Origin: an uncultured Planctomycetales bacterium
GTDB taxonomy: Bacteria; Omnitrophota; Gorgyraeia; Gygaellales; Profunditerraquicolaceae
Length of the DNA: 64,000 nt
Reading direction: 5' to 3'
Assembly: GCA_964427405.1 (NCBI GenBank)
Contig: CAYRUB010000008.1
Span: 31,428 to 95,427, forward strand
Below are positions 3,731 to 48,342 of the stretch, piece by piece. The notes under the pieces were generated by a model. The model was given only the letters and a program-made list of their open reading frames with translations. It ran no database searches and was not told the origin of the DNA. Each line of letters starts with the position of its first letter. The first letter of the stretch is position 1. Made by a program: the position numbers and the translations under genes.

Positions 3731-3768
3731 TTGTTTTCTCCTTTCGAATAATCAATACAAAAATAAAA

Positions 3769-3842
<74 letters not shown>

Positions 3843-3922
3843 ATACCAATTGCGCACCGGCGCAACTCCAATAAGCGCCGGGTGCTGCATCGCTCGCTAT
3901 TATCAACTGTAAAATTTCATTT

Positions 3923-4004
3923 TGGGCGGAAGAGGATTTGAACCTCCAAGGGTTACCCCAATAGCTCCTAAGGCTATCGCGTATGCCAATTCCGCCATCC
4001 GCCC
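3923..4004 (-). tRNA. tRNA-Leu (anticodon TAG), long variable arm
   Basis: Revcomp reads GGGCGGATGGCGGAATTGGCATACGCGATAGCCTTAGGAGCTATTGGGGTAACCCTTGGAGGTTCAAATCCTCTTCCGCCCA. Anticodon loop CTTAGGA; acceptor GGGCGGA/TCCGCCC. Confidence 0.8.
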
Positions 4005-4034
4005 GGAATGTTCCTCTTTCCACCTACTAATAAC

Positions 4035-4200
4035 TTTGATAGCCTGTGGTATTGCGGAGCGCGCATTAGAAAACTTTCGGCAAATGAGTGCGAGGAATTA
4101 CGATGAGCGAAGGCCGACGCAGTGTATGGTCGGCCGAAAACGAATCGTAAACCGAAGCACTCGGCGAAAGTTTTCAGCGCGCGGAACAATACCACAGGAT
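4035..4200. repeat. R1 intergenic repeat, copy 1 (diverged), between tRNA-Leu and tRNA-Lys; imperfect ~40-nt terminal inverted repeats
   Basis: Shares aaactttcggcaaatgagtgcgaggaattacg with copy 2 (9220-9255) and cgtaaaccgaagcactcggcgaaa with copy 3 (11770-11800). Ends cctgtggtattgcggagcgcgc / gcgcgcggaacaataccacagg are inverted repeats. Confidence 0.6.
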
Positions 4201-4211
4201 ATCAAATTATT

Positions 4212-4283
4212 CTGAGCCTCCCGCGACTCGAACGCGGCACAACCACATTAAAAGTGTGGTGCTCTACCTGATGAGCTAGAGGC
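4212..4283 (-). tRNA. tRNA-Lys (anticodon TTT)
   Basis: Revcomp reads GGGCCTCTAGCTCATCAGGTAGAGCACCACACTTTTAATGTGGTTGTGCCGCGTTCGAGTCGCGGGAGGCTCA. Anticodon loop CTTTTAA. Confidence 0.75.
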
Positions 4284-4289
4284 CCGAAT

Positions 4290-7185: not shown

Positions 7186-8973
7186 TTATTGTATCTCTTG
7201 AGCATCATAAAGCCGCTTGTATAAACCCTTCTTTTCCAGCAACTGGCTATGCGTCCCCTGCTCAACGATTACTCCTTTATCTAAGACTACAATCCTATCG
7301 GCATTCCTTACCGTGGAAAGCCGGTGAGCGACCACAAAAACCGTTCTGCCGGTAACCAGGCTGTCTAAAGCCTCCTGAACAATACGTTCAGATGTAGAAT
7401 CCAACTGTGAGGTAGCTTCGTCCAGGATTAATATCGGGGCATTCTTTAAAAGTGCGCGGGCAATAGCAATACGCTGACGCTCTCCTCCGGAGATCTTTAC
7501 TCCTCTATCACCAATTATTGTACCATAACCTTGCGGGCATTTGGATATAAAATCATGCGCATGCGCCCTCCTGGCTGCCTCTTCTATTTCCTTATCAGAG
7601 GCATCCAGCTTACCATAAGCAATATTAGCCCGGATCGTATCATTAAAAAGCATGGTTTCCTGATTAACTATACCTATCTGGTTACGCAATGATTTTAAAT
7701 CAAACTCCCGCACATCCACTCCATCAATAAGAACGCTTCCTTTTTGAGGGTCGTAAAAACGCGGAATTAAATCCACCAGCGTGCTTTTTCCCGTGCCGCT
7801 GGGGCCGACAATTGCCAGCATCTGACCGTAACCAACCTCTAAATTAATCCCTTTCAGGATTTGCGTATCGGCATAACTGAACCAAACATCATTAAATCTG
7901 ATATTCTGTTTAAAACCAGTTAAGGTTTTAGGCACAAGCGGTTCTTTTACGCTCGGCTCTGTCTCCAATACTTCATGTATGCGTTCGCTGGCCGCCATAG
8001 CCTGTTGGTTTAAAGCATTTACCTGGCTTAATTTCTTTAATGGTCGGATTAAAGATAAAAGCGAACCCAGAAACAGGCCAAAAACTCCAAAAGATATTTT
8101 ACCGGCGATAACTTCACGGCCGCCCCAGAAAAATACCAACACACCGGCAATACACCCTAAGTACTCCGTAGCAGGATTAAGCAGCAGCGTACGCTTAATT
8201 GACTTCATGGAAAGTTTATAATAATCCATATTTACCTTATTAAACTTACTAATCTCATGCTCTTCCATATTAAAGGCTTTAACAATGCGCGCACCCATAA
8301 TCGTCTCATAAAGCAGAGAATTAGTATCAGCGGCATTCTCCTGAGTGCGTTTGGAAAGTTTTCTTAAAACCTTACCGACCTTTATAATCGGTAAACTGAT
8401 TAAAGGCACGAATATAATCGAAACTAAAGCCATTTTAAAATAGATAAAGAAAATAACTATGGCAAAAATAACCACCTGCAAGCTCTGATAAATCAGGTCA
8501 GTTGAACCGTATGATACCGCATTCTCCACAAGCCTGACGTCATTATTGATACGTGACATGAGTTCTCCGCCGCGCTTATGGGTAAAATAGCTAAGCGATA
8601 AAGACTGTATCTTACCATAGAGTTTAGACTTAATATCCCTGACCACACGTTGACCAATATCCGACATAAGATAGCTCTGGAAGAATTCAAAAATCCCTTT
8701 TAATAAGAAAAGCACCAGTACAGTAACAACCATATAGCTCAAAAGCACTTCCGGAGAGGTATTATTTATTTTATCCACAAAATTAGCCAGAAAATCCGGT
8801 AATTTAGCCGGGATAATGATCTTTTTGTTGGTCAAAACCTTATCTGCTAAAGGCACTATCATTGCCAGAGATACACCGTCAAATATCGCAGAAAACCCCA
8901 TACAAACTATGGCTATAGCGAATAAACCATAATAAGGCCGCACGAATTTTAGTAACTTAAGATAGTCCTTCAT
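7186..8973 (-). CDS. ABC transporter permease/ATP-binding protein, MsbA-like exporter
   Basis: 595 aa. N-terminal 6-TM domain plus Walker A GPSGTGKST, signature LSGGERQR and Walker B ILILDEAT. Confidence 0.8.
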   Translation of the reverse strand: MKDYLKLLKFVRPYYGLFAIAIVCMGFSAIFDGVSLAMIVPLADKVLTNKKIIIPAKLPDFLANFVDKINNTSPEVLLSYMVVTVLVLFLLKGIFEFFQSYLMSDIGQRVVRDIKSKLYGKIQSLSLSYFTHKRGGELMSRINNDVRLVENAVSYGSTDLIYQSLQVVIFAIVIFFIYFKMALVSIIFVPLISLPIIKVGKVLRKLSKRTQENAADTNSLLYETIMGARIVKAFNMEEHEISKFNKVNMDYYKLSMKSIKRTLLLNPATEYLGCIAGVLVFFWGGREVIAGKISFGVFGLFLGSLLSLIRPLKKLSQVNALNQQAMAASERIHEVLETEPSVKEPLVPKTLTGFKQNIRFNDVWFSYADTQILKGINLEVGYGQMLAIVGPSGTGKSTLVDLIPRFYDPQKGSVLIDGVDVREFDLKSLRNQIGIVNQETMLFNDTIRANIAYGKLDASDKEIEEAARRAHAHDFISKCPQGYGTIIGDRGVKISGGERQRIAIARALLKNAPILILDEATSQLDSTSERIVQEALDSLVTGRTVFVVAHRLSTVRNADRIVVLDKGVIVEQGTHSQLLEKKGLYKRLYDAQEIQ

Positions 8974-16262: not shown

Positions 16263-17924
16263 TTACTTATCATACGTAGAATAAAAATATGGGGTGTGCG
16301 CCATGAATTCCGCGGCGCAGGTATCAACCAGCTTGAAATCCGGAAGAATATTCATGGACTTTCTTAAAGCATAGACCTCAGCCTGGCTCATAGATAAAAG
16401 TTTGGCCAGCTGTATATCGCTAAAGCCATACTCTTTGGCCTTCTTAAGTAATTCTCCGGAAAGATTACCTTTATTTTTAAGCAGCTCTTTTTCACAATCA
16501 ACAATCTCTTTGATGTTATATAAAAACCAGCGGTCAATCTTGGTTAATTCATGGATCTTTTCAATATCCAGATTAGCGCGGAAGGCATCACCAATATAAA
16601 AAATCCTTTCCGCATTAGGCTGCCTTAATTTCTGATAAATCTTGTCTAAAAGGCCATTTTCAATTTTAATATCTTCTAAGTTATAGAAAATAATGCTTTC
16701 CAGTCCGGATTTCTTAATCTCCAGCGAACGCAAACCTTTCTGCAACGCCTCTTTAAAAGTACGGCCAATAGCCATGGCCTCGCCAACTGACTTCATGGAT
16801 ATTCCCAGGGTACTGTCAGCCAAAGCAAATTTCTCGAAAGTAAACCGCGGGATCTTTACTACGCAATAATCAATAGCCGGCTCAAAGCAAGCAGGAGTTG
16901 AGCGGGTAATATCATTAGATATTTCATCCAGGGTGTAGCCAACAGCAAGCTTAGCTGCAATTTTTGCAATAGGAAAACCTGTGGCTTTTGAGGATAGCGC
17001 TGAACTGCGCGAAACCCGCGGATTCATCTCGATAACCACCATTCTGCCGGTCTCCGGATGCACCGCAAACTGTATGTTTGAACCGCCGGTTTCAACGCCA
17101 ATCTCACGGATACAAGCAATAGCGGCATCACGCATCAACTGATATTGTTTATCGGTTAGTGTCTGGATAGGCGCCACGGTAATACTATCTCCGGTATGCA
17201 CGCCCATAGGGTCAAGATTTTCGATAGTACAAATGACCACTACATTATCTTTTAAATCCCGCATCACCTCCAGTTCAAATTCCTTCCAACCCAACACAGA
17301 TTCTTCAACCAGAATCTCGCTGATCATACTTGACTCAAGGCCGCGCTTAGCCAAAACCTTGAACTCTTCAATATTATAAGCGATTGACCCGCCCCCGCCC
17401 CCTAAAGTAAAACTGGGCCGGATGATCAAAGGAAAACCTACTTTTTCCGTCACAGCAACCGCTTCATCCAAATTATAAGCCCGGCCGCTTTTAGGCAAAT
17501 CCAGCCCGATCTTTTCCATCGCCGCTTTAAATAACTGGCGATCCTCGCCTTTTTTAATCGCTTTTATATTAGCTCCGATAGTTTCAACCTTATACTTTTT
17601 TAACACTCCTTTTTCCGCCAACTCTACGGTAGTATTCAAAGCAGTCTGGCCGCCAAGAGTAGGCAGGAGCGCATCCGGCCTTTCTTTGGCAATAATCTTC
17701 TCTACCGTCTCGGCGTTAATCGGCTCGATATAAGTCTGATCGGCAATTTCAGGATCAGTCATAATTGTCGCCGGGTTAGAATTCACCAGGACAATTTTAA
17801 ACCCCTCCTGTTTTAAGACCTTACATGCCTGGGTGCCGGAATAATCAAACTCGCAGGCTTGGCCGATAACAATGGGCCCGGAACCAATAATCAATATTTT
17901 TCTAATATCTTTTCTCTTAGGCAT
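16263..17924 (-). CDS. carB: Carbamoyl-phosphate synthase large subunit, N-terminal half only (split carB)
   Basis: 553 aa. [27 protein letters not shown]-grasp signature. Ends ...[25 protein letters not shown], exactly where the second synthetase half begins in full-length CarB. The next gene downstream is unrelated. Confidence 0.85.
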
Positions 17925-17927
17925 AGC

Positions 17928-19040
17928 TTAATACTTTCGCTTCTTTGACTTCTGCATTAATTTTGTAAACTCGGCAAATAAATATTCTGCGTCGTGCGGC
18001 CCTGGAGAAGCTTCAGGATGAAATTGCACGCAAAATAACGGCAGCTTCTTATGGCGAAACCCTTCTGAGGTACCGTCATTTAAATTTACATGAGTCAGTT
18101 CAATATCTTTCTTGTCCAGTGAATCTATGTCCACGCAAAAACCATGATTCTGGCTGGTTATAGAAACCTTCCCTGTCTTTAAATCCTTTACCGGATGATT
18201 TGCTCCGTGGTGGCCGAACTTAAGTTTATAAGTTTTGCCCCCTAAAGCAAGCCCGAGCATCTGATGCCCCAGGCAGATTCCAAAGATTGGCAGTTTACCG
18301 ATAAGTTTGGTTACTGTTTTAACCACATAATCTACGGCCGCCGGATCTCCTGGCCCGTTAGAAAGCAACAAGCCATCAGGCTTGATTGCAAGTATTTCCT
18401 CAGAAGTTGCCTGCGCGGGTAATACTGCTACATTACAATTATTGCGCGTCAATTCTCTCAATATATTGTATTTTACCCCGCAGTCTAAAACTACAACCTT
18501 ATATTTAGCATCTTTAGACCAGGCATAATTATATTTTTTGGAAATACTGACCTCTTTAACTAAATCTATGCCGATCAGCCCGCGGCAGTTTTGGGCCTTT
18601 TTGATTAGGCTGGCCTCGTCAGAATCCTGTGTAGAGAGAACCGCTTTCATCGCCCCTTTTTCCCTTATATGCAAAGTAAGCTTACGGGTATCAATACCCT
18701 CAATACCTAAAATATTGTTTTCTTTTAAATACTCACCTAAAGACTGTTCATTTTTCCAGTTACTGGCGATCTTACTATACTCTTTTACCACAAGACCTTC
18801 CAGAAAAGGACTGCGGCTCTCCGCATCCTCCTTATTAATTCCATAATTTCCCATCAGGGGATAAGTCATCACTATAATCTGCCCCTTATAAGAAGGATCA
18901 GTAATAATCTCCTGATATCCGGCCATGCTGGTATTAAAAACTACCTCGCCGGTCCGCTCACCGCTTACGCCAAATGAGCTGCCTTTAAACACCTTCCCGT
19001 CTTCTAAAACAAGAAAAGCTTGCATATTTATCATCCTCAC
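17928..19040 (-). CDS. carA: Carbamoyl-phosphate synthase small subunit (glutamine amidotransferase)
   Basis: 370 aa. CarA N-domain plus class-I GATase (ICLGHQ catalytic Cys; HGANHPV region). Confidence 0.9.
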   Translation of the reverse strand: MRMINMQAFLVLEDGKVFKGSSFGVSGERTGEVVFNTSMAGYQEIITDPSYKGQIIVMTYPLMGNYGINKEDAESRSPFLEGLVVKEYSKIASNWKNEQSLGEYLKENNILGIEGIDTRKLTLHIREKGAMKAVLSTQDSDEASLIKKAQNCRGLIGIDLVKEVSISKKYNYAWSKDAKYKVVVLDCGVKYNILRELTRNNCNVAVLPAQATSEEILAIKPDGLLLSNGPGDPAAVDYVVKTVTKLIGKLPIFGICLGHQMLGLALGGKTYKLKFGHHGANHPVKDLKTGKVSITSQNHGFCVDIDSLDKKDIELTHVNLNDGTSEGFRHKKLPLFCVQFHPEASPGPHDAEYLFAEFTKLMQKSKKRKY

Positions 19041-19044
19041 ATAA

Positions 19045-19121
19045 AAAGGCGTTTAGTGCCGATAGCTCGGCTGCTAAACGCCTTTGTTTACTTATTTTAA
19101 CACCATAAAACAAATTGTCAA
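19045..19121 (-). promoter_or_regulatory. carA promoter (TTGACA-N16-TAAAAT) followed at once by a perfect 12-bp stem-loop plus U-tract in the leader (attenuator/terminator-like)
   Basis: Minus strand: TTGACA at 19121..19116, TAAAAT at 19099..19094. Hairpin AAAGGCGTTTAG-(17 nt)-CTAAACGCCTTT at 19085..19045, then TTTTAT and GAGGATGA ATG. Confidence 0.45.
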
Positions 19122-19136
19122 TTTCTTTCTTTAAAA

Positions 19137-20471
19137 CTACTGGCCAAGAGCCAAATACTCCTTGCCTTCCTTCCAGGGATTAAGATAACGTTCAATACTC
19201 AAACTGTTATCTTGAACCAAATCAACCAGGCGTTTTTTGTCAACAGGCGAGACTATCTCTATTTTTGGCCGGCGGATATCAGATTCATTCTCATCCCTGA
19301 CTAACGCGATACTGCCGTCATTTAACGCCACTACCGAGCCAATTGGCCAAAAACCCATAAATCTAAAGAATTTGTCCAGTAACTCCGGATCAAAGGCGCT
19401 TCCCCTGTCTTTGTTCATAATATTATAAACTACATCGGGGGAATAATCCTGCTTGTAGCCTCTCCTTTGCGAAAGGGCATCATAAACATCACAGATAGCG
19501 ACAATCGAAGAAACTATATGCTGTTTTCTCAATAAAGGCAGGCGGGGATATCCGGATGAGTCATATTTTAAATGGTGTTCGAAACTAACTACCACCGGCA
19601 GAATCCCCAGGCTATCGACATATTCAAACATAAACTCAGCGCCCAAAACCGTATGGCTCTTAATACGGTTAAACTCCTGCTCGCTAAGCTTATCCGGCTT
19701 ATGTAATGTCTTACGTGAAATATACAACTTGCCGATGTCATGGAAAAGGGCGGCCACGCCGATATCCAATATATCATTCTTTTCAAACCCCAGGCGCGAG
19801 GAAAAATACATGGCAAAAATGGAAACATTAAGCATGTGCACATAAATCTCAGCATCATATCTTTTTACCGTTGCTAATTTTAGCAACTCTTGACGCTGCG
19901 TGCCCAAACTATCGATAATGCTATTTAAGGAAAATTTAAGCCCTAGCGGATCAATCTTTTCAGAATTAAGCACGCTAGATAAAACCTGGCTAACCCTATC
20001 CACAGAAGAATTATAAAGCTCAAGCTGATTATCCGCTAAAAGATCCTTGTCCTTGCTGTCACCAACTTTCAGCTTACCTATGCTTATGTTTTTGACTCCA
20101 ATATGAGCCAACAACATCTGGGGATCTGTTTTAAAATCTTCTTTCGGGCCGGCAAGAAGACCCACGAATTTACTCAGTTCTTCTTTGTTTAATCCACGAT
20201 AAAAAGCAAGCCTTTCAATATTTCTCTCTTTTAAATACAGGATCGCCGATCTTAAAAGCTTACCTAAGTCAAAAAGAATCTCTTTTTCAAAAGCCAGTTC
20301 ATCCCCCACGATACCGATGACCATCTCCTGACGCTGTGCTAAAACATCCTCAAAAGCCACATACGCCTTATCCAGGGATTTCTGAAACATAGGATGTATT
20401 ATGCCGTACATCTTGGCAGTCTGAAGACAAGTGAGCAATTCTTTAAAAGCTTTTTCAACTTTAGCGAGCAT
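19137..20471 (-). CDS. HD-GYP-domain phosphodiesterase with an uncharacterised ~240-aa N-terminal domain
   Basis: HD motif AALFHDIGKL, and HHLKYDSSGYP matching the HD-GYP signature (HHExxDGxGYP). The start overlaps the upstream ORF stop by 11 nt. Confidence 0.75.
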   Translation of the reverse strand: MLAKVEKAFKELLTCLQTAKMYGIIHPMFQKSLDKAYVAFEDVLAQRQEMVIGIVGDELAFEKEILFDLGKLLRSAILYLKERNIERLAFYRGLNKEELSKFVGLLAGPKEDFKTDPQMLLAHIGVKNISIGKLKVGDSKDKDLLADNQLELYNSSVDRVSQVLSSVLNSEKIDPLGLKFSLNSIIDSLGTQRQELLKLATVKRYDAEIYVHMLNVSIFAMYFSSRLGFEKNDILDIGVAALFHDIGKLYISRKTLHKPDKLSEQEFNRIKSHTVLGAEFMFEYVDSLGILPVVVSFEHHLKYDSSGYPRLPLLRKQHIVSSIVAICDVYDALSQRRGYKQDYSPDVVYNIMNKDRGSAFDPELLDKFFRFMGFWPIGSVVALNDGSIALVRDENESDIRRPKIEIVSPVDKKRLVDLVQDNSLSIERYLNPWKEGKEYLALGQ

Positions 20472-22389
20472 TCCACTCCTTTAATATTCCAGCCGCCTTA
20501 TTACGTAATTCCCTATTCCAGAAGAATTTCCTGCGGCTTAGTTGCCCGATATAACTAACTGCCTCAATAAACCGTAAATCAAAAGCAATCTGCATATTTT
20601 CAATAAGGAGCTTATTCTTGTTTCCTAAAAAGCTGTGGATTCCAAAGAGCAGATCTAAGGCATATTTTTTTGCCTGTGCGTCCAATATCAAAACAGAAAG
20701 CAGCCCATTTCTGAGTAACAACGAATTCGTATTGAACTGATGCGTAAGAAATGCAATATCCACTTTCTTTAATCTGCGCATGGCTTTTAATGCTTCAGAC
20801 TTAACCAATTCATTAGCGGAAAGATATATGTATTCTAACATGCTCAAAGTTACGGGCGTATCAATTTGGCCTAACGCATCGGTTAAGCTGCCAAGAAACT
20901 CTGTATCCTGAATTTTTTGATTCAATTTTTCATAAAAAGCTTTCAAGGCCCCCTGAAACAATCTTAAAAATAAACCTAAAACCTGCTTATTTACTTTTTC
21001 GGCGGTAAATATTTTATCCAGGTACAGGCCCGGCTCCTTGCTGGGAGAAGAAACCATCTCCAAAAGAAATTCCTGCTCAGAAGTAAGGAAACCGTTTAAA
21101 ACAATATTTTCAACAAAAGAAGAATAACTCCTTTCAAGATCAATACATGCTTTTATACCCTCTCCCTTTCTTTTGGCTAACACTCCCCAGAGATCTTTTA
21201 AGAAAACAACATTATTCTCCTCAAATACGCCAGCTAACTCTTTCTCTAAAATCTCTGCTGCCATTGTCAGGGTACCTGGGTTTTGATCGGTTGCAAATAC
21301 GCCTAAAACTATATAACGGTAATTTTCCCTGAGCATCTTATGGTCAAAAATAAGCTTGCCGGAAAAAGTGATCCCCTTGATCAAAGATTCAAGCGTATTA
21401 CGGTATACCGCAGAGAGAGGATCATCCTGAGCGGTACTTAATAAATTCCTAATTTTCTTTACTACCCCAGGGTTATCCCTTAAGTCCTGCGTTTCATTTA
21501 TTTTATTGAAAAATTTCTCGGTGATCTTGAGGGAATTTTTCTGTTCGGAAATCTTGGAAAAAAGCTGCAGGCTCAAAGTATCAAAATTATCCTCCTGCAT
21601 AAACCCTTCCTGGAGGAGGGCGCTAAAATCCTCCTGGCTTAAACCATTAAAAACCGGTTTGAGCCTTACCAATTTTTCCTGACTAAGGGTTTTTTTATTG
21701 CGCAGAAGCCAAAGAAAAACATCTTGCGTACATTTATCAAACTTTTCTTTATTTTTACCTCTTAAACAATCTAAAAACTCATTGACTTCGGAAGAAATGC
21801 CTTCGGCATCAAGAAGTTCTTTTTCACTGACCCGATTAATAAACGAGCCAAAATCATCCGCCAACTGCCCCAGCTTAACCGCATCATTGCTATGCACGGC
21901 ATATTTAAGCATATAGCCCCAGACATCGGCACACTCCTGGCCTTCCCCATGCAAAAATGCAGAATAATCCAGCTCATCTACCGTAAAATTAGTAAGTTGC
22001 TTTTTCTCTAAAAGCGCATTAATCCCGCCGTTTTTAAAAATATCCTTTTGTGGCAACGAAATTACAGAAAGAAGCTGAATTAACTCCTGAAGGATTACCC
22101 CATTCCTGATTTCTATATTTTTTATTTTACGCTGATGCAATAGACGGGCTAATTCGTCATAGAAACCGACTCTCGTAAGGATCTTTCCATCAACTACAAG
22201 TCCTGAATTAGTTACCCCGATTTTAAGCGGATTTAGAACAGCGAGGATAAGTTCAAGCTTAAGCTTAAGGTTCTCTACGGATTTAATAAAATAAGGATGG
22301 TCCTTGGGGTAAGAAAAAGCGTTGGTAAGCGCAACTTTTAAGCTGCGGAAAAAATCTTCAATTATTTGATCTTTATTCACAGAAGACAT
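20461..22389 (-). CDS. Uncharacterised 642-aa protein; its N-terminal ~120 aa is homologous to the N-terminal domain of the adjacent HD-GYP protein
   Basis: Long ORF with coding-like composition and no motif I recognise. Ungapped alignment of residues ~24-110 to HD-GYP residues ~18-105 shares a YxxHPxFxKS…IGV…G…L pattern (about 23% identity). Confidence 0.5.
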   Translation of the reverse strand: MSSVNKDQIIEDFFRSLKVALTNAFSYPKDHPYFIKSVENLKLKLELILAVLNPLKIGVTNSGLVVDGKILTRVGFYDELARLLHQRKIKNIEIRNGVILQELIQLLSVISLPQKDIFKNGGINALLEKKQLTNFTVDELDYSAFLHGEGQECADVWGYMLKYAVHSNDAVKLGQLADDFGSFINRVSEKELLDAEGISSEVNEFLDCLRGKNKEKFDKCTQDVFLWLLRNKKTLSQEKLVRLKPVFNGLSQEDFSALLQEGFMQEDNFDTLSLQLFSKISEQKNSLKITEKFFNKINETQDLRDNPGVVKKIRNLLSTAQDDPLSAVYRNTLESLIKGITFSGKLIFDHKMLRENYRYIVLGVFATDQNPGTLTMAAEILEKELAGVFEENNVVFLKDLWGVLAKRKGEGIKACIDLERSYSSFVENIVLNGFLTSEQEFLLEMVSSPSKEPGLYLDKIFTAEKVNKQVLGLFLRLFQGALKAFYEKLNQKIQDTEFLGSLTDALGQIDTPVTLSMLEYIYLSANELVKSEALKAMRRLKKVDIAFLTHQFNTNSLLLRNGLLSVLILDAQAKKYALDLLFGIHSFLGNKNKLLIENMQIAFDLRFIEAVSYIGQLSRRKFFWNRELRNKAAGILKEWNAR

Positions 22390-22423
22390 TTTACAACTTT
22401 AATATTCAGCTTGCAACTAATTT

Positions 22424-22476
22424 AATAGGGACAGCGACCATTTATTAAAGCTGACTAAATGTTCACTGTCCCTATT
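22424..22476 (-). promoter_or_regulatory. Hairpin with TAGGGACAG/CTGTCCCTA arms in the 5' region of the 642-aa gene
   Basis: aatagggacag-(31 nt)-ctgtccctatt. The same 9-mer arms recur at 30408-30435. Confidence 0.35.
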
Positions 22477-22506
22477 TAACAGGCAATTTCTGAGCTATTC
22501 TCTTAC

Positions 22507-23865
22507 TTATACCAAGCCCTGATCAAGCATGGCATCGGCTACCTTAACAAACCCGGCAATATTTGCTCCATTAACATAATTAACATGCCCGGCTTCCTTG
22601 CCATATTTAACACACTGCTCATGTATAGCAATCATTATATCATGCAACCTTTTATCCACTTCTTCGCGTGTCCAAGATAACCTGGCACTATTCTGGCTCA
22701 TTTCAAGGCCGGAAGTAGCTACGCCGCCGGCATTTGAAGCCTTGCCAGGGGCATAAAGGATCTTAGCCTTCTGGAATACTTCAACCCCTTCCGGAGTTGT
22801 GGGCATATTCGCACCCTCAGCAACAGCGATACAACCATTTTTCACTAAAGCCTTGGCATCATTCTCATCTATTTCATTCTGAGTAGCAGAAGGAAAGGCA
22901 ACATCGCATTTTACATTCCATGGCCTCTGTTTCTCAAAATATTTACAATTAAACTCTTTGGCGCATTCCTTAATCCTGCCGCGCTTAACGTTCTTCAATT
23001 GCAAAACGCAATTAAGTTCTTTCTTGTCAATACCATCTTTATCGTAAATATAACCGTCGGAATCAGACAGGGTTACCACTTTAGCCCCCATCTGTATAAG
23101 CTTCTCTACGGTATATTGAGCCACATTACCCGAACCAGATACCGCGCAGGTTTTTCCTTTTAAGGAATCGCCTTTAGTCTTAAGCATCTCTTCCGCGAAA
23201 TATACGCAGCCATAGCCGGTAGCTTCCGGTCTGATCAAACTGCCGCCCCAGTTAAGGCCTTTACCTGTAAGCACACCTGAGAATTCATTACGTAATCTCT
23301 TATATTGCCCGAATAGATAACCAATCTCGCGGCCGCCGGTGCCGATATCTCCGGCAGGCACATCAGTATTAGGTCCGATATGGCGGAAAAGCTCGGTCAT
23401 AAAACTCTGACAGAACTTCATTACTTCATTATCCGACTTACCCTTAGGATCAAAATCTGATCCGCCTTTTGCCCCGCCCATTGGTAAAGTGGTAAGCGCG
23501 TTCTTAAAAACCTGTTCAAAAGCCAGGAATTTCAATATCCCTATATTCACGCTCGGATGTAAACGTATTCCGCCTTTATAAGGGCCGATGGCGCTGTTCA
23601 TCTGGATACGAAAACCGCGGTTAATCTGAAACTCTCCCTGATCATCAAGCCAGGGAACGCGGAATATAATTGTCCTTTCCGGTTCAATCATTCTTTCCAA
23701 TATCTTGGCTTTCTGATATTTAGGGTTTTTCTCAATAAAAGGCATTACCGATTCCACAACCTCCCGCACCGCCTGATGAAACTCTGTTTCACCGGGGTTC
23801 CTCTTTGCAACTAAATCCATAAACTCTTCAGTCTTCTTTGACATTATTATTCTCCTTTCCCGCAA
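22507..23865 (-). CDS. gdhA: NADP-specific glutamate dehydrogenase
   Basis: 452 aa. KGGIRLHPSVNIGILKFLAFEQVFKNAL…PMGGAKGGSDFDPKG and GxGNVA Rossmann; hexameric GDH family. Confidence 0.9.
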   Translation of the reverse strand: MRERRIIMSKKTEEFMDLVAKRNPGETEFHQAVREVVESVMPFIEKNPKYQKAKILERMIEPERTIIFRVPWLDDQGEFQINRGFRIQMNSAIGPYKGGIRLHPSVNIGILKFLAFEQVFKNALTTLPMGGAKGGSDFDPKGKSDNEVMKFCQSFMTELFRHIGPNTDVPAGDIGTGGREIGYLFGQYKRLRNEFSGVLTGKGLNWGGSLIRPEATGYGCVYFAEEMLKTKGDSLKGKTCAVSGSGNVAQYTVEKLIQMGAKVVTLSDSDGYIYDKDGIDKKELNCVLQLKNVKRGRIKECAKEFNCKYFEKQRPWNVKCDVAFPSATQNEIDENDAKALVKNGCIAVAEGANMPTTPEGVEVFQKAKILYAPGKASNAGGVATSGLEMSQNSARLSWTREEVDKRLHDIMIAIHEQCVKYGKEAGHVNYVNGANIAGFVKVADAMLDQGLV

Positions 23866-30380: not shown

Positions 30381-30407
30381 TTTTTCCTCCTTCAGCTTAG
30401 GGACAGT

Positions 30408-30435
30408 TCTGCTTTGAGTTGAGAACCGTCCCTAC
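30408..30435 (-). promoter_or_regulatory. Hairpin with TAGGGAC(A/G)G arms in the 5' UTR of the TM1266-like gene
   Basis: ttagggacagttct-(loop)-agaaccgtccctac; 13-bp stem with one G-U on the minus-strand RNA. About 25 nt before AAGGAGG-ATG. Confidence 0.35.
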
Positions 30436-43133: not shown

Positions 43134-43192
43134 TAAAAAAACCATCTCGCATTAACATGCAAGATGGCGGCCCGACCATCTGAATCCTCCGG
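43134..43192 (-). terminator. Conserved double-hairpin plus U-tract motif (copy 1) after treT and upstream of peptide d
   Basis: Minus strand: AGATGG-tcgggccg-CCATCT hairpin, TGCAT-gtta-ATGCA hairpin, then GATGGTTTTTTT. Core catgcaagatggcggcccgaccatct is identical to the copy at 48171-48236. Confidence 0.4.
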
Positions 43193-43229
43193 AAATGCAC
43201 CCGCAGTTCCGAACCCTTATCCTAATAAA

Positions 43230-48170: not shown

Positions 48171-48236
48171 AAAACAAAAATCGCCACCCTGCATTCCCAT
48201 GCAAGATGGCGGCCCGACCATCTAACGATCCTCTGG
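48171..48236 (-). terminator. Conserved double-hairpin plus U-rich motif (copy 2) between atpC and otsA
   Basis: Same AGATGG-tcgggccg-CCATCT and TGCAT-ggga-ATGCA hairpins, then GGGTGGCGATTTTTGTTTTGTT, about 15 nt before the otsA ATG. Confidence 0.4.
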
Positions 48237-48342
48237 GAATATTTACTTATTCCCAAACCACTTATACTAAATTATATAATGCAATATACCACGATTAGAT
48301 AGAAATTCAACAAATTAATAGAGTAATATTTTATATTTATAC

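Follow-up and report, generated by a model that had tools for sequence, protein, structure and literature searches.

The window analysed here, a stretch of 64,000 nucleotides (nt) of contig CAYRUB010000008.1 from an uncultured bacterium of the Omnitrophota, carries on its reverse strand two overlapping genes, one encoding an HD-GYP phosphodiesterase and the other a partner protein that begins with a homologous N-terminal domain (hereafter N-domain). The HD-GYP gene (19137..20471, 444 amino acids), identified from the list of open reading frames (ORFs) and from Pfam, NCBIfam and Protein Data Bank (PDB) profile matches, lies directly downstream of the partner gene (20461..22389, 642 amino acids when read from the ATG at 22389, with the stop codon TAA at 20461-20463). 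The partner is a cytoplasmic protein in which an alpha/beta N-domain of about 135 amino acids is followed by a predicted HEAT/ARM-like alpha-solenoid. The HD-GYP protein is composed of the N-domain, a helical linker, the HD-GYP domain and a small C-terminal beta-domain. On balance, we favour the view that the N-domains join the two proteins in a complex, in which the solenoid would regulate or target the active phosphodiesterase.

A shared N-terminal domain

The N-domain covers residues 1-140 of the partner (21970..22389) and residues 1-135 of the HD-GYP protein (20067..20471), both on the reverse strand. A BLASTP comparison aligned residues 10-116 of the partner with residues 5-112 of the HD-GYP protein at 28% identity over 108 amino acids, with a single gap and an E-value of 7e-7. 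When alignments of the two families were compared with hhalign, the N-domains matched with a probability of 94% (E 1.4e-7, 133 columns); with about 60 sequences per family, distant Aminicenantes included, the match reached 98.1% (E 1.3e-13, 131 columns). A control comparison of the remainders of both proteins, outside the N-domain, gave a probability of 0.6%, and a kinship of partner and HD-GYP protein beyond this domain was rejected on this result. The joint alignment of 28 N-domains revealed an invariant tyrosine and an invariant histidine (Y27 and H31 in the partner, Y22 and H26 in the HD-GYP protein) within the motif Y-x3-H-P-x-F, together with a conserved IGI strand and a conserved EL helix start. 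The two residues are invariant over 61-64 sequences per family, bar one aligned exception or gap, and the Y-x3-H-P loop to which they belong (Y27-x3-H31-P in the partner, Y22-x3-H26-P in the HD-GYP protein) sits between helices 1 and 2. AlphaFold2 predicts the same order of elements for both N-domains, namely two long helices, a three-stranded beta-meander, a helix, a strand, three short helices and a strand, with a predicted local distance difference test (pLDDT) score of about 70-94 (70-91 in the partner, 72-94 in the HD-GYP protein). Among distant relatives, the N-domain is also the best-kept region of the partner, with 39% identity compared with 29-30% elsewhere. As judged from these comparisons of sequences, the two N-domains are homologous, beyond chance. 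An earlier interpretation of this DNA, made from the letters alone (the sequence-only reading), had proposed that they are paralogous, and the profile-profile E-value, the shared invariant Tyr/His loop and the common order of predicted secondary structure bear it out.

A hidden Markov model (HMM) of the N-domain found exactly two proteins in the window, the partner and the HD-GYP protein. A profile search for stand-alone forms returned only 20 short proteins. The two of these that lie on long contigs were rejected as stand-alone proteins, being disrupted HD-GYP genes that are each preceded by a partner gene: at locus L072 (5001-7651) the HD-GYP gene is broken by an inserted transposase gene (rve/HTH), at locus L073 (4800-6155) it is frameshifted, and the upstream partner is intact at both. 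In the DNA fetched for the loci, further occurrences of the N-domain were found only as second whole modules on two Aminicenantes contigs, L043 (10152-13575, forward strand, highly divergent) and L054 (10902-13927, reverse strand), each detected with the N-domain HMM next to the first module; the second partner of L054 looks frameshifted near its 3' end. Within the data searched, the N-domain occurs only in the partner and HD-GYP protein types, and we define it as a previously undescribed domain family with two known contexts. A sensory or dimerisation role for this domain is something that we only infer.

In the second module of L043, the partner contains clear Pfam HEAT_2 repeats (E 5e-16) and the loop His is replaced by Asn in both proteins (Tyr-x3-Asn), a paired change that is suggestive. 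This partner was linked to the family through a mixed N-domain HMM, with 41-45 bits, and its hhalign comparison with the partner family gave a weak match (E 0.1). A metagenome scan with the same divergent partner returned only relatives that are 89-100% identical to it, too little diversity to follow covariation of the loop Tyr and His.

A conserved and overlapping gene pair

At 20461-20471, the partner and HD-GYP ORFs have 11 nt, ATGCTCGCTAA, in common. The junction (20461..20481, reverse strand) reads AAGGAG-TGGA-ATGCTCGCTAA, and the AAGGAG at 20481-20476, placed inside the 3' end of the partner gene and 4 nt upstream of the HD-GYP ATG (20471-20469), has the features of a strong Shine-Dalgarno sequence for the HD-GYP gene. 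The GGAGTGG block at the junction is conserved because K-E-W is also encoded there. An overlap of 4-17 nt, most commonly 11, was present at 63 of 63 measured junctions. The pair thus has a stop/start overlap and an internal ribosome-binding site, and both are kept in relatives. Given the Shine-Dalgarno sequence and the 11-nt overlap, translation of the HD-GYP gene is likely to be coupled to that of the partner gene, and such coupling would likely favour similar amounts of both proteins.

The locus scan, which used one genome per species, yielded 71 loci from Omnitrophota, Aminicenantes, one member of the Margulisiibacteriota and metagenome-assembled genomes labelled 'uncultured Eubacteriales' or 'uncultured Planctomycetales', names that look like automatic assignments. 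Six of these loci are on contigs that stop within the partner gene, which leaves 65 in which adjacency could be tested. The HD-GYP gene is directly downstream of the partner in all 65, at partner identities as low as 28-33%. In the distant set, the HD-GYP proteins retain 44-54% identity whereas the partners retain 28-35%, the HD-GYP protein being the slower to evolve, and no complete locus has a disrupted partner ORF. The 11-nt overlap had been noted in the sequence-only reading, together with a translational coupling that the conserved overlap of 4-17 nt fits and that we, too, infer. Two of the checks and refuting conditions that it had named gave results in its favour, the 642-amino-acid ORF being intact and adjacent in relatives down to 28-33% identity and the gene neighbourhood being conserved, with the overlapping HD-GYP gene next to the partner at every testable locus.

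A gltD-like gene and gdhA upstream of the pair, and carA and carB downstream of it, form an environment that is stable across dozens of Omnitrophota genomes. These flanking genes are kept only among the closer Omnitrophota, and no conserved third gene was found around the pair in distant loci. We regard the module as an operon of two genes that is self-contained and has been inherited vertically. An apparent partner-HD-GYP fusion of 889 amino acids at locus L033 was rejected as an assembly artefact, since a run of N (scaffold gap, 7477-7576) occupies its junction.

Counted as representatives of 50%-identity clusters, an exhaustive profile search with the partner retrieved 990 members of the family at E <= 1e-3, of which 287 also reached E <= 1e-30. 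Among the best 150 representatives, almost all are about 640 amino acids long and are matched end to end, a handful being fragmentary. The homologues are mostly 639 amino acids in length.

The HD-GYP protein

The 444-amino-acid protein matches Pfam HD_5 (E 7.8e-14, 52.2 bits for a cut-off of 27.2), Pfam HD (E 8.5e-13, 49.1 bits for a cut-off of 22) and NCBIfam HDIG (TIGR00277, 29.3 bits for a cut-off of 27.6). A profile of its family searched against the PDB retrieved PmGH (4MCW, E 1.2e-26), V-cGAP3 (5Z7C, E 1.2e-18) and PA4781 (4R8Z, E 2.9e-11). By these matches, it appears to be a bona fide member of the HD-GYP domain family (PROSITE PS51832 / IPR037522), the class II phosphodiesterases of cyclic di-GMP (c-di-GMP). 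The catalytic domain spans residues 206-372 (19356..19856), as delimited by the two Pfam matches and the alignment to 4MCW. In this alignment, E208, H212, H244-D245, H273, H299-H300 and D328 fall onto the eight metal ligands of the trinuclear site of PmGH, which we take to include H189, H221, D222, H250, H276, H277 and D305. The offset of this numbering along the chain was checked against Lys235 of PmGH, a residue that contacts c-di-GMP (bioRxiv 10.1101/2021.11.05.467447) and with which K258 of the window protein aligns. Among 61 homologues, conservation is almost complete for the seven His/Asp ligands, K248, K258 and Y308 (60-61 sequences each); of the rest of the GYP triplet, G307 occurs in 58 homologues and P309 in 60. 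The canonical form of the motif is HHExh(D/N)GxGYP (bioRxiv 10.1101/2021.11.05.467447); the window protein reads HHLKYDSSGYP, its HH, D and GYP being conserved, and homologues vary at the position of the first Gly. From its residues, the enzyme looks catalytically competent, and its substrate would be c-di-GMP.

The catalytic domain is followed by a beta-rich extension of about 70 residues (373-444, 19140..19355), for which AlphaFold2 predicts five strands at a pLDDT of 57-89. This extension is conserved, with 48% identity in distant relatives. Foldseek returned weak matches to small barrels (E > 1), and the model suggests that it is probably a small SH3/Tudor-like barrel.

The partner protein

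The partner of the window has no match in Pfam or NCBIfam or among PDB sequences, and no significant HEAT/ARM sequence match. Downstream of the N-domain come an invariant ELDYS motif (residues 139-143), a flexible linker, a middle helical region and a C-terminal alpha-solenoid (residues 350-642); W157, FFWN at 622-625 and R629 are further invariant motifs. The part from about residue 155 to 642 (20464..21926) is all-helical in the AlphaFold2 model, whose mean pLDDT is 78 for the whole protein and about 90 for residues 350-642. A Foldseek search of the PDB with this model returned only ARM/HEAT solenoids (importin-alpha, beta-catenin, Kap121p and AP adaptors), with E-values of about 2e-4 to 2e-3 and low template modelling (TM) scores of 0.14-0.22; these matches therefore support a fold class and no specific family. 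Among homologues, Pfam HEAT_2 matches 2 of 24, weakly, and one carries the NCBI annotation of a HEAT-repeat protein. The C-terminal part of the partner is, according to these models, a diverged HEAT/ARM-like alpha-solenoid. The sequence-only reading had described a helical remainder of about 500 amino acids that matched no family known to it, which holds for sequence families and not for the fold, since its class can be recognised.

Promoter, start codon and neighbouring elements

A consensus scan placed the promoter of the two-gene unit at 22388..22416 on the reverse strand, with the -35 element TTGCAA (22416-22411), a 17-nt spacer and an extended -10 element, TGTAAAAT, whose hexamer is at 22393-22388. 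The pattern GTTGC-N17/18-TGTAAAAT-N7-(G/A)TG is shared by 39 Omnitrophota loci upstream of the partner gene. In these 39 loci, the extended -10 element ends exactly 7 nt ahead of the GTG or ATG, and no Shine-Dalgarno sequence precedes the partner start. The two-gene messenger RNA is therefore probably leaderless, as far as the position of the -10 element indicates. Because the start-codon alignment is conserved at GTG 22380 and because ATG 22389 overlaps the -10 hexamer (TAAAATG), the most likely start of the partner from these alignments is GTG 22380, which gives a protein of 639 amino acids. The 642-amino-acid ORF reported earlier does exist from ATG 22389; its likely start lies three codons further in.

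Further upstream, 30 nt past the gdhA stop codon, lies the TAGGGACAG hairpin (22423..22477, reverse strand), with arms ATAGGGACAG and CTGTCCCTAT, a folding free energy of -35 kcal/mol and a z-score of -5.1. Its tail is merely TATTAAATT, and a terminator consensus scan made no call (the loop is longer than 8 nt). At this position, the hairpins of relatives are unrelated to it and GC-rich, and their T-runs are clearer. Because it is placed between the gdhA stop codon and the unit's own promoter, we read the hairpin as a terminator-like boundary element of gdhA, outside the two-gene unit. The sequence-only reading had a hairpin preceding the unit, and the structure it saw is real and stable; we assign it to the upstream gdhA and not to the unit. 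A search of Rfam over 18800-22700 at E <= 1 gave no match, by which the hairpin or leader was rejected as a known RNA family.

A sister of this hairpin, of the same family, is found in another intergenic region of the window at 30399-30434. Related hairpins follow genes in the window and occur in the upstream regions of loci L001, L002, L008-L010, L013, L015, L018, L029 and L030. Their arms read ATAGGGAC(A/G)G... or GGGGACGGTTCTATT..., and they may be repetitive extragenic palindrome (REP)-like or terminator-like elements.

On the other side of the pair, the carA leader (19041-19121, reverse strand), which lies after the stop codon of the HD-GYP gene and ahead of the carA start, is conserved, being kept in L004, L006, L007, L010-L012, L014, L016, L017, L019, L028, L031, L035 and L038. 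It contains a near-consensus promoter (TTGACA-16-TAAAAT, 11 of 12 matches) and downstream of this, just before carA, a hairpin of conserved sequence, GGCGTTTAG(c/g)AGCCGA-N4-TCGGCACTAAACGCC plus a T-run, with a folding free energy of -23.9 kcal/mol; the Rfam search of 18800-22700 (E <= 1) gave no match to this leader. Being terminator-like and located within the 5' leader, the hairpin suggests that carA-carB transcription is controlled by an attenuator. The carB-like ORF at 16263-17924 (reverse strand) encodes only 553 amino acids, corresponding to the N-terminal half of the large subunit of carbamoyl-phosphate synthase. An unrelated ORF of 508 amino acids comes next, so that this lineage appears to have a split carB; relatives carry the same 553-amino-acid form.

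Elsewhere in the window, two nhaA-I RNA motifs (RF03057, a candidate riboswitch of Na+ type) are present at 43162-43216 and 48204-48260 on the reverse strand, with 48.9 and 48.7 bits, over the gathering threshold. A transfer RNA cluster (Gly-GCC, Leu-TAG, Lys-TTT) is located at 3768-4285, also on the reverse strand.

Comparison with known systems

The catalytic domain of the window enzyme is homologous to those of PmGH from Persephonella marina (GAF-HD-GYP, 4MCW), PA4781 and V-cGAP3, including metal ligands, GYP and Lys. It differs from these enzymes in its N-terminal domain, which is an undescribed alpha/beta domain and not GAF, REC or PAS, in the motif HHLxY(D/N)xxGYP in place of HHExh(D/N)GxGYP, and in having an additional C-terminal beta-domain and a dedicated partner encoded by an overlapping gene. 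We know of no characterised HD-GYP enzyme with a dedicated coupled partner. A search of the open-access full-text literature for HD-GYP with Omnitrophota or with HEAT repeats returned nothing relevant.

The Bd1817 family (DUF3391-HD-GYP; Bd1817, PA4108 and VC2497) likewise consists of soluble HD-GYP proteins with an N-terminal domain of about 120-135 amino acids that has no known ligand. DUF3391, which is common in soluble HD-GYP proteins, consists of four beta-strands and then two long helices; a role in promoting dimerisation has been suggested for it, and its carriers are almost all single DUF3391-HD-GYP proteins (bioRxiv 10.1101/2021.11.05.467447). The N-domain of the window, in contrast, opens with two long helices and continues as mixed alpha/beta, and no neighbouring partner with a paralogue of the domain is described for the Bd1817 family. 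DUF3391 (PF11871) gave no match at E <= 1 to the window protein or to the 28 N-domains, and 3TM8 was not among the Foldseek matches. The identification of the N-domain as DUF3391, GAF, PAS or REC was rejected by the null results of the Pfam, PDB-sequence and Foldseek searches given below. Accordingly to its architecture, the window protein stands outside the RpfG (REC), PmGH (GAF) and Bd1817 (DUF3391) families of the published HD-GYP census (bioRxiv 10.1101/2021.11.05.467447).

On the side of the partner, residues 350-642 or so share the predicted alpha-solenoid fold with bacterial scaffolds of the HEAT_2 / PBS-lyase HEAT-like type, and the L043 paralogue matches HEAT_2. Unlike these scaffolds, the window partner lacks a significant sequence match, adds an N-domain and is linked to an HD-GYP enzyme.

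For the concept of a phosphodiesterase acting through a specific protein partner, E. coli PdeR-DgcM-MlrA and RpfG with its GGDEF/PilZ partners offer an analogy, with no homology implied. In these systems, the phosphodiesterase acts via direct protein contacts and not through the global nucleotide pool alone. They differ from the window module in that the enzymes are EAL or REC-HD-GYP proteins, the partners have no paralogous domain and their genes do not overlap in pairs. What is known here is the HD-GYP catalytic family; what is new is an HD-GYP phosphodiesterase with a new N-domain and a dedicated HEAT-like partner bearing the paralogous domain.

A possible two-subunit phosphodiesterase

A fixed gene order, an overlapping junction, a domain exclusive to the pair and second copies that come as whole modules together bear the mark of a complex with two subunits. 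In the mechanism that we propose, the paralogous N-domains would pair as a pseudo-symmetric heterodimer joining the partner and the HD-GYP protein, and their interface would derive from that through which an ancestral N-domain protein formed homodimers. Such pairing would turn the solenoid into a subunit dedicated to regulating or targeting the phosphodiesterase, and by binding another protein or a cellular structure the solenoid could switch c-di-GMP hydrolysis on and off or confine it locally. More tentatively, and with less confidence than we have in the complex itself, we suggest that the N-domain may be a new heterodimerisation module defining an unrecognised class of two-subunit HD-GYP enzymes, widespread in Omnitrophota, Aminicenantes and Margulisiibacteriota. 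In this class, the HEAT-repeat subunit might dock the enzyme on a cellular machine or sense a protein signal, c-di-GMP might be degraded locally, and cognate-pair specificity might permit several modules per genome.

Several observations weigh against this interpretation. The correlated change from His to Asn is a single case, that of L043, and no natural fusion of partner and HD-GYP protein was found, the one at L033 being an artefact. The N-domain has no Pfam match at E <= 1 (window protein and 28 N-domains), no PDB sequence match better than E 0.03 and no match in a Foldseek search of the PDB. A search of the window for the GGDEF motif gave no match. As for the enzyme, the third-metal Glu, E208, is present in just 34 of the 61 homologues, and the Glu of HHE is replaced by Leu in 57 of 61, which gives the family form HHLxY(D/N)xxGYP; activity and substrate may therefore differ from those of the model enzymes. 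The AlphaFold2 model of the catalytic domain is also poor, with a pLDDT below 50.

The most serious competing explanation, which we regard as unlikely, is that the two proteins are parallel sensors, whose N-domains make no mutual contact and each bind the same ligand or signal via the Tyr-x3-His-Pro loop; there would then be two outputs, and co-transcription would serve just for co-expression. In the models, the exposed loop between two helices, with its invariant Tyr and His in both families, resembles a binding site, and the joint change to Asn in the L043 module would be explained equally well by a new ligand and by a new interface. HD-GYP N-terminal domains are, moreover, usually sensors (bioRxiv 10.1101/2021.11.05.467447). 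A general ligand sensor, however, would be expected on other output domains, and the N-domain is found on none; the solenoid lacks an autonomous output activity, and overlaps at 63 of 63 junctions with a fixed gene order are more typical of the subunits of one complex.

We give less credence still to the partner being an effector, either a receptor for the cyclic dinucleotide or its linear product pGpG, or a downstream target ruled by the local nucleotide pool. The tight gene linkage and the invariant motifs of surface type (ELDYS 139-143, W157, FFWN 622-625 and R629) would suit such a role, and degenerate or novel c-di-GMP receptors are frequent. Against it, Pfam and NCBIfam revealed no c-di-GMP-binding domain, a search of the window ORFs for the PilZ-like pattern RRxxR...DxSxxG gave no match, and the shared N-domain would be left without a reason.

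That the pair is a mobile module of anti-phage defence or conflict, with an HD nuclease or phosphodiesterase and a repeat-protein sensor, is very improbable. HD domains and HEAT-like repeat sensors are found among defence systems, and the HD domain has weak PADLOC matches to Cas10/Cas3 HD models (E 3e-4 to 5e-4). These matches nevertheless correspond to generic HD similarity, the HD-GYP assignment being bona fide and the partner having no PADLOC match. The composition shows no island signature, and the housekeeping synteny with the gltD-like gene, gdhA, carA and carB is stable over dozens of Omnitrophota genomes.

Finally, a chance resemblance, in which the N-terminal similarity would be compositional and the 642-amino-acid ORF no real partner, could appeal to a pairwise identity of merely 23-28% and is excluded by the profile-profile match (E 1.3e-13 vs 0.6% for the control), the identical order of predicted secondary structure, and a full-length family of 287 cluster representatives at E <= 1e-30 whose ORF is unbroken in every complete locus.

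Among the phosphodiesterases of c-di-GMP, HD-GYP proteins form the class that is less well understood, and the N-terminal regions of many of them are unassigned (bioRxiv 10.1101/2021.11.05.467447). The finding reported here defines an N-domain family, both of its known contexts and a strictly conserved pair of enzyme and scaffold. The module is small, soluble and self-contained and is therefore directly testable by heterologous co-expression. If the two proteins do form a complex, this would be, to our knowledge, the first HD-GYP enzyme with a dedicated partner bearing a paralogous domain, and it would provide a handle on second-messenger signalling in the Omnitrophota, a phylum without a cultured model organism.

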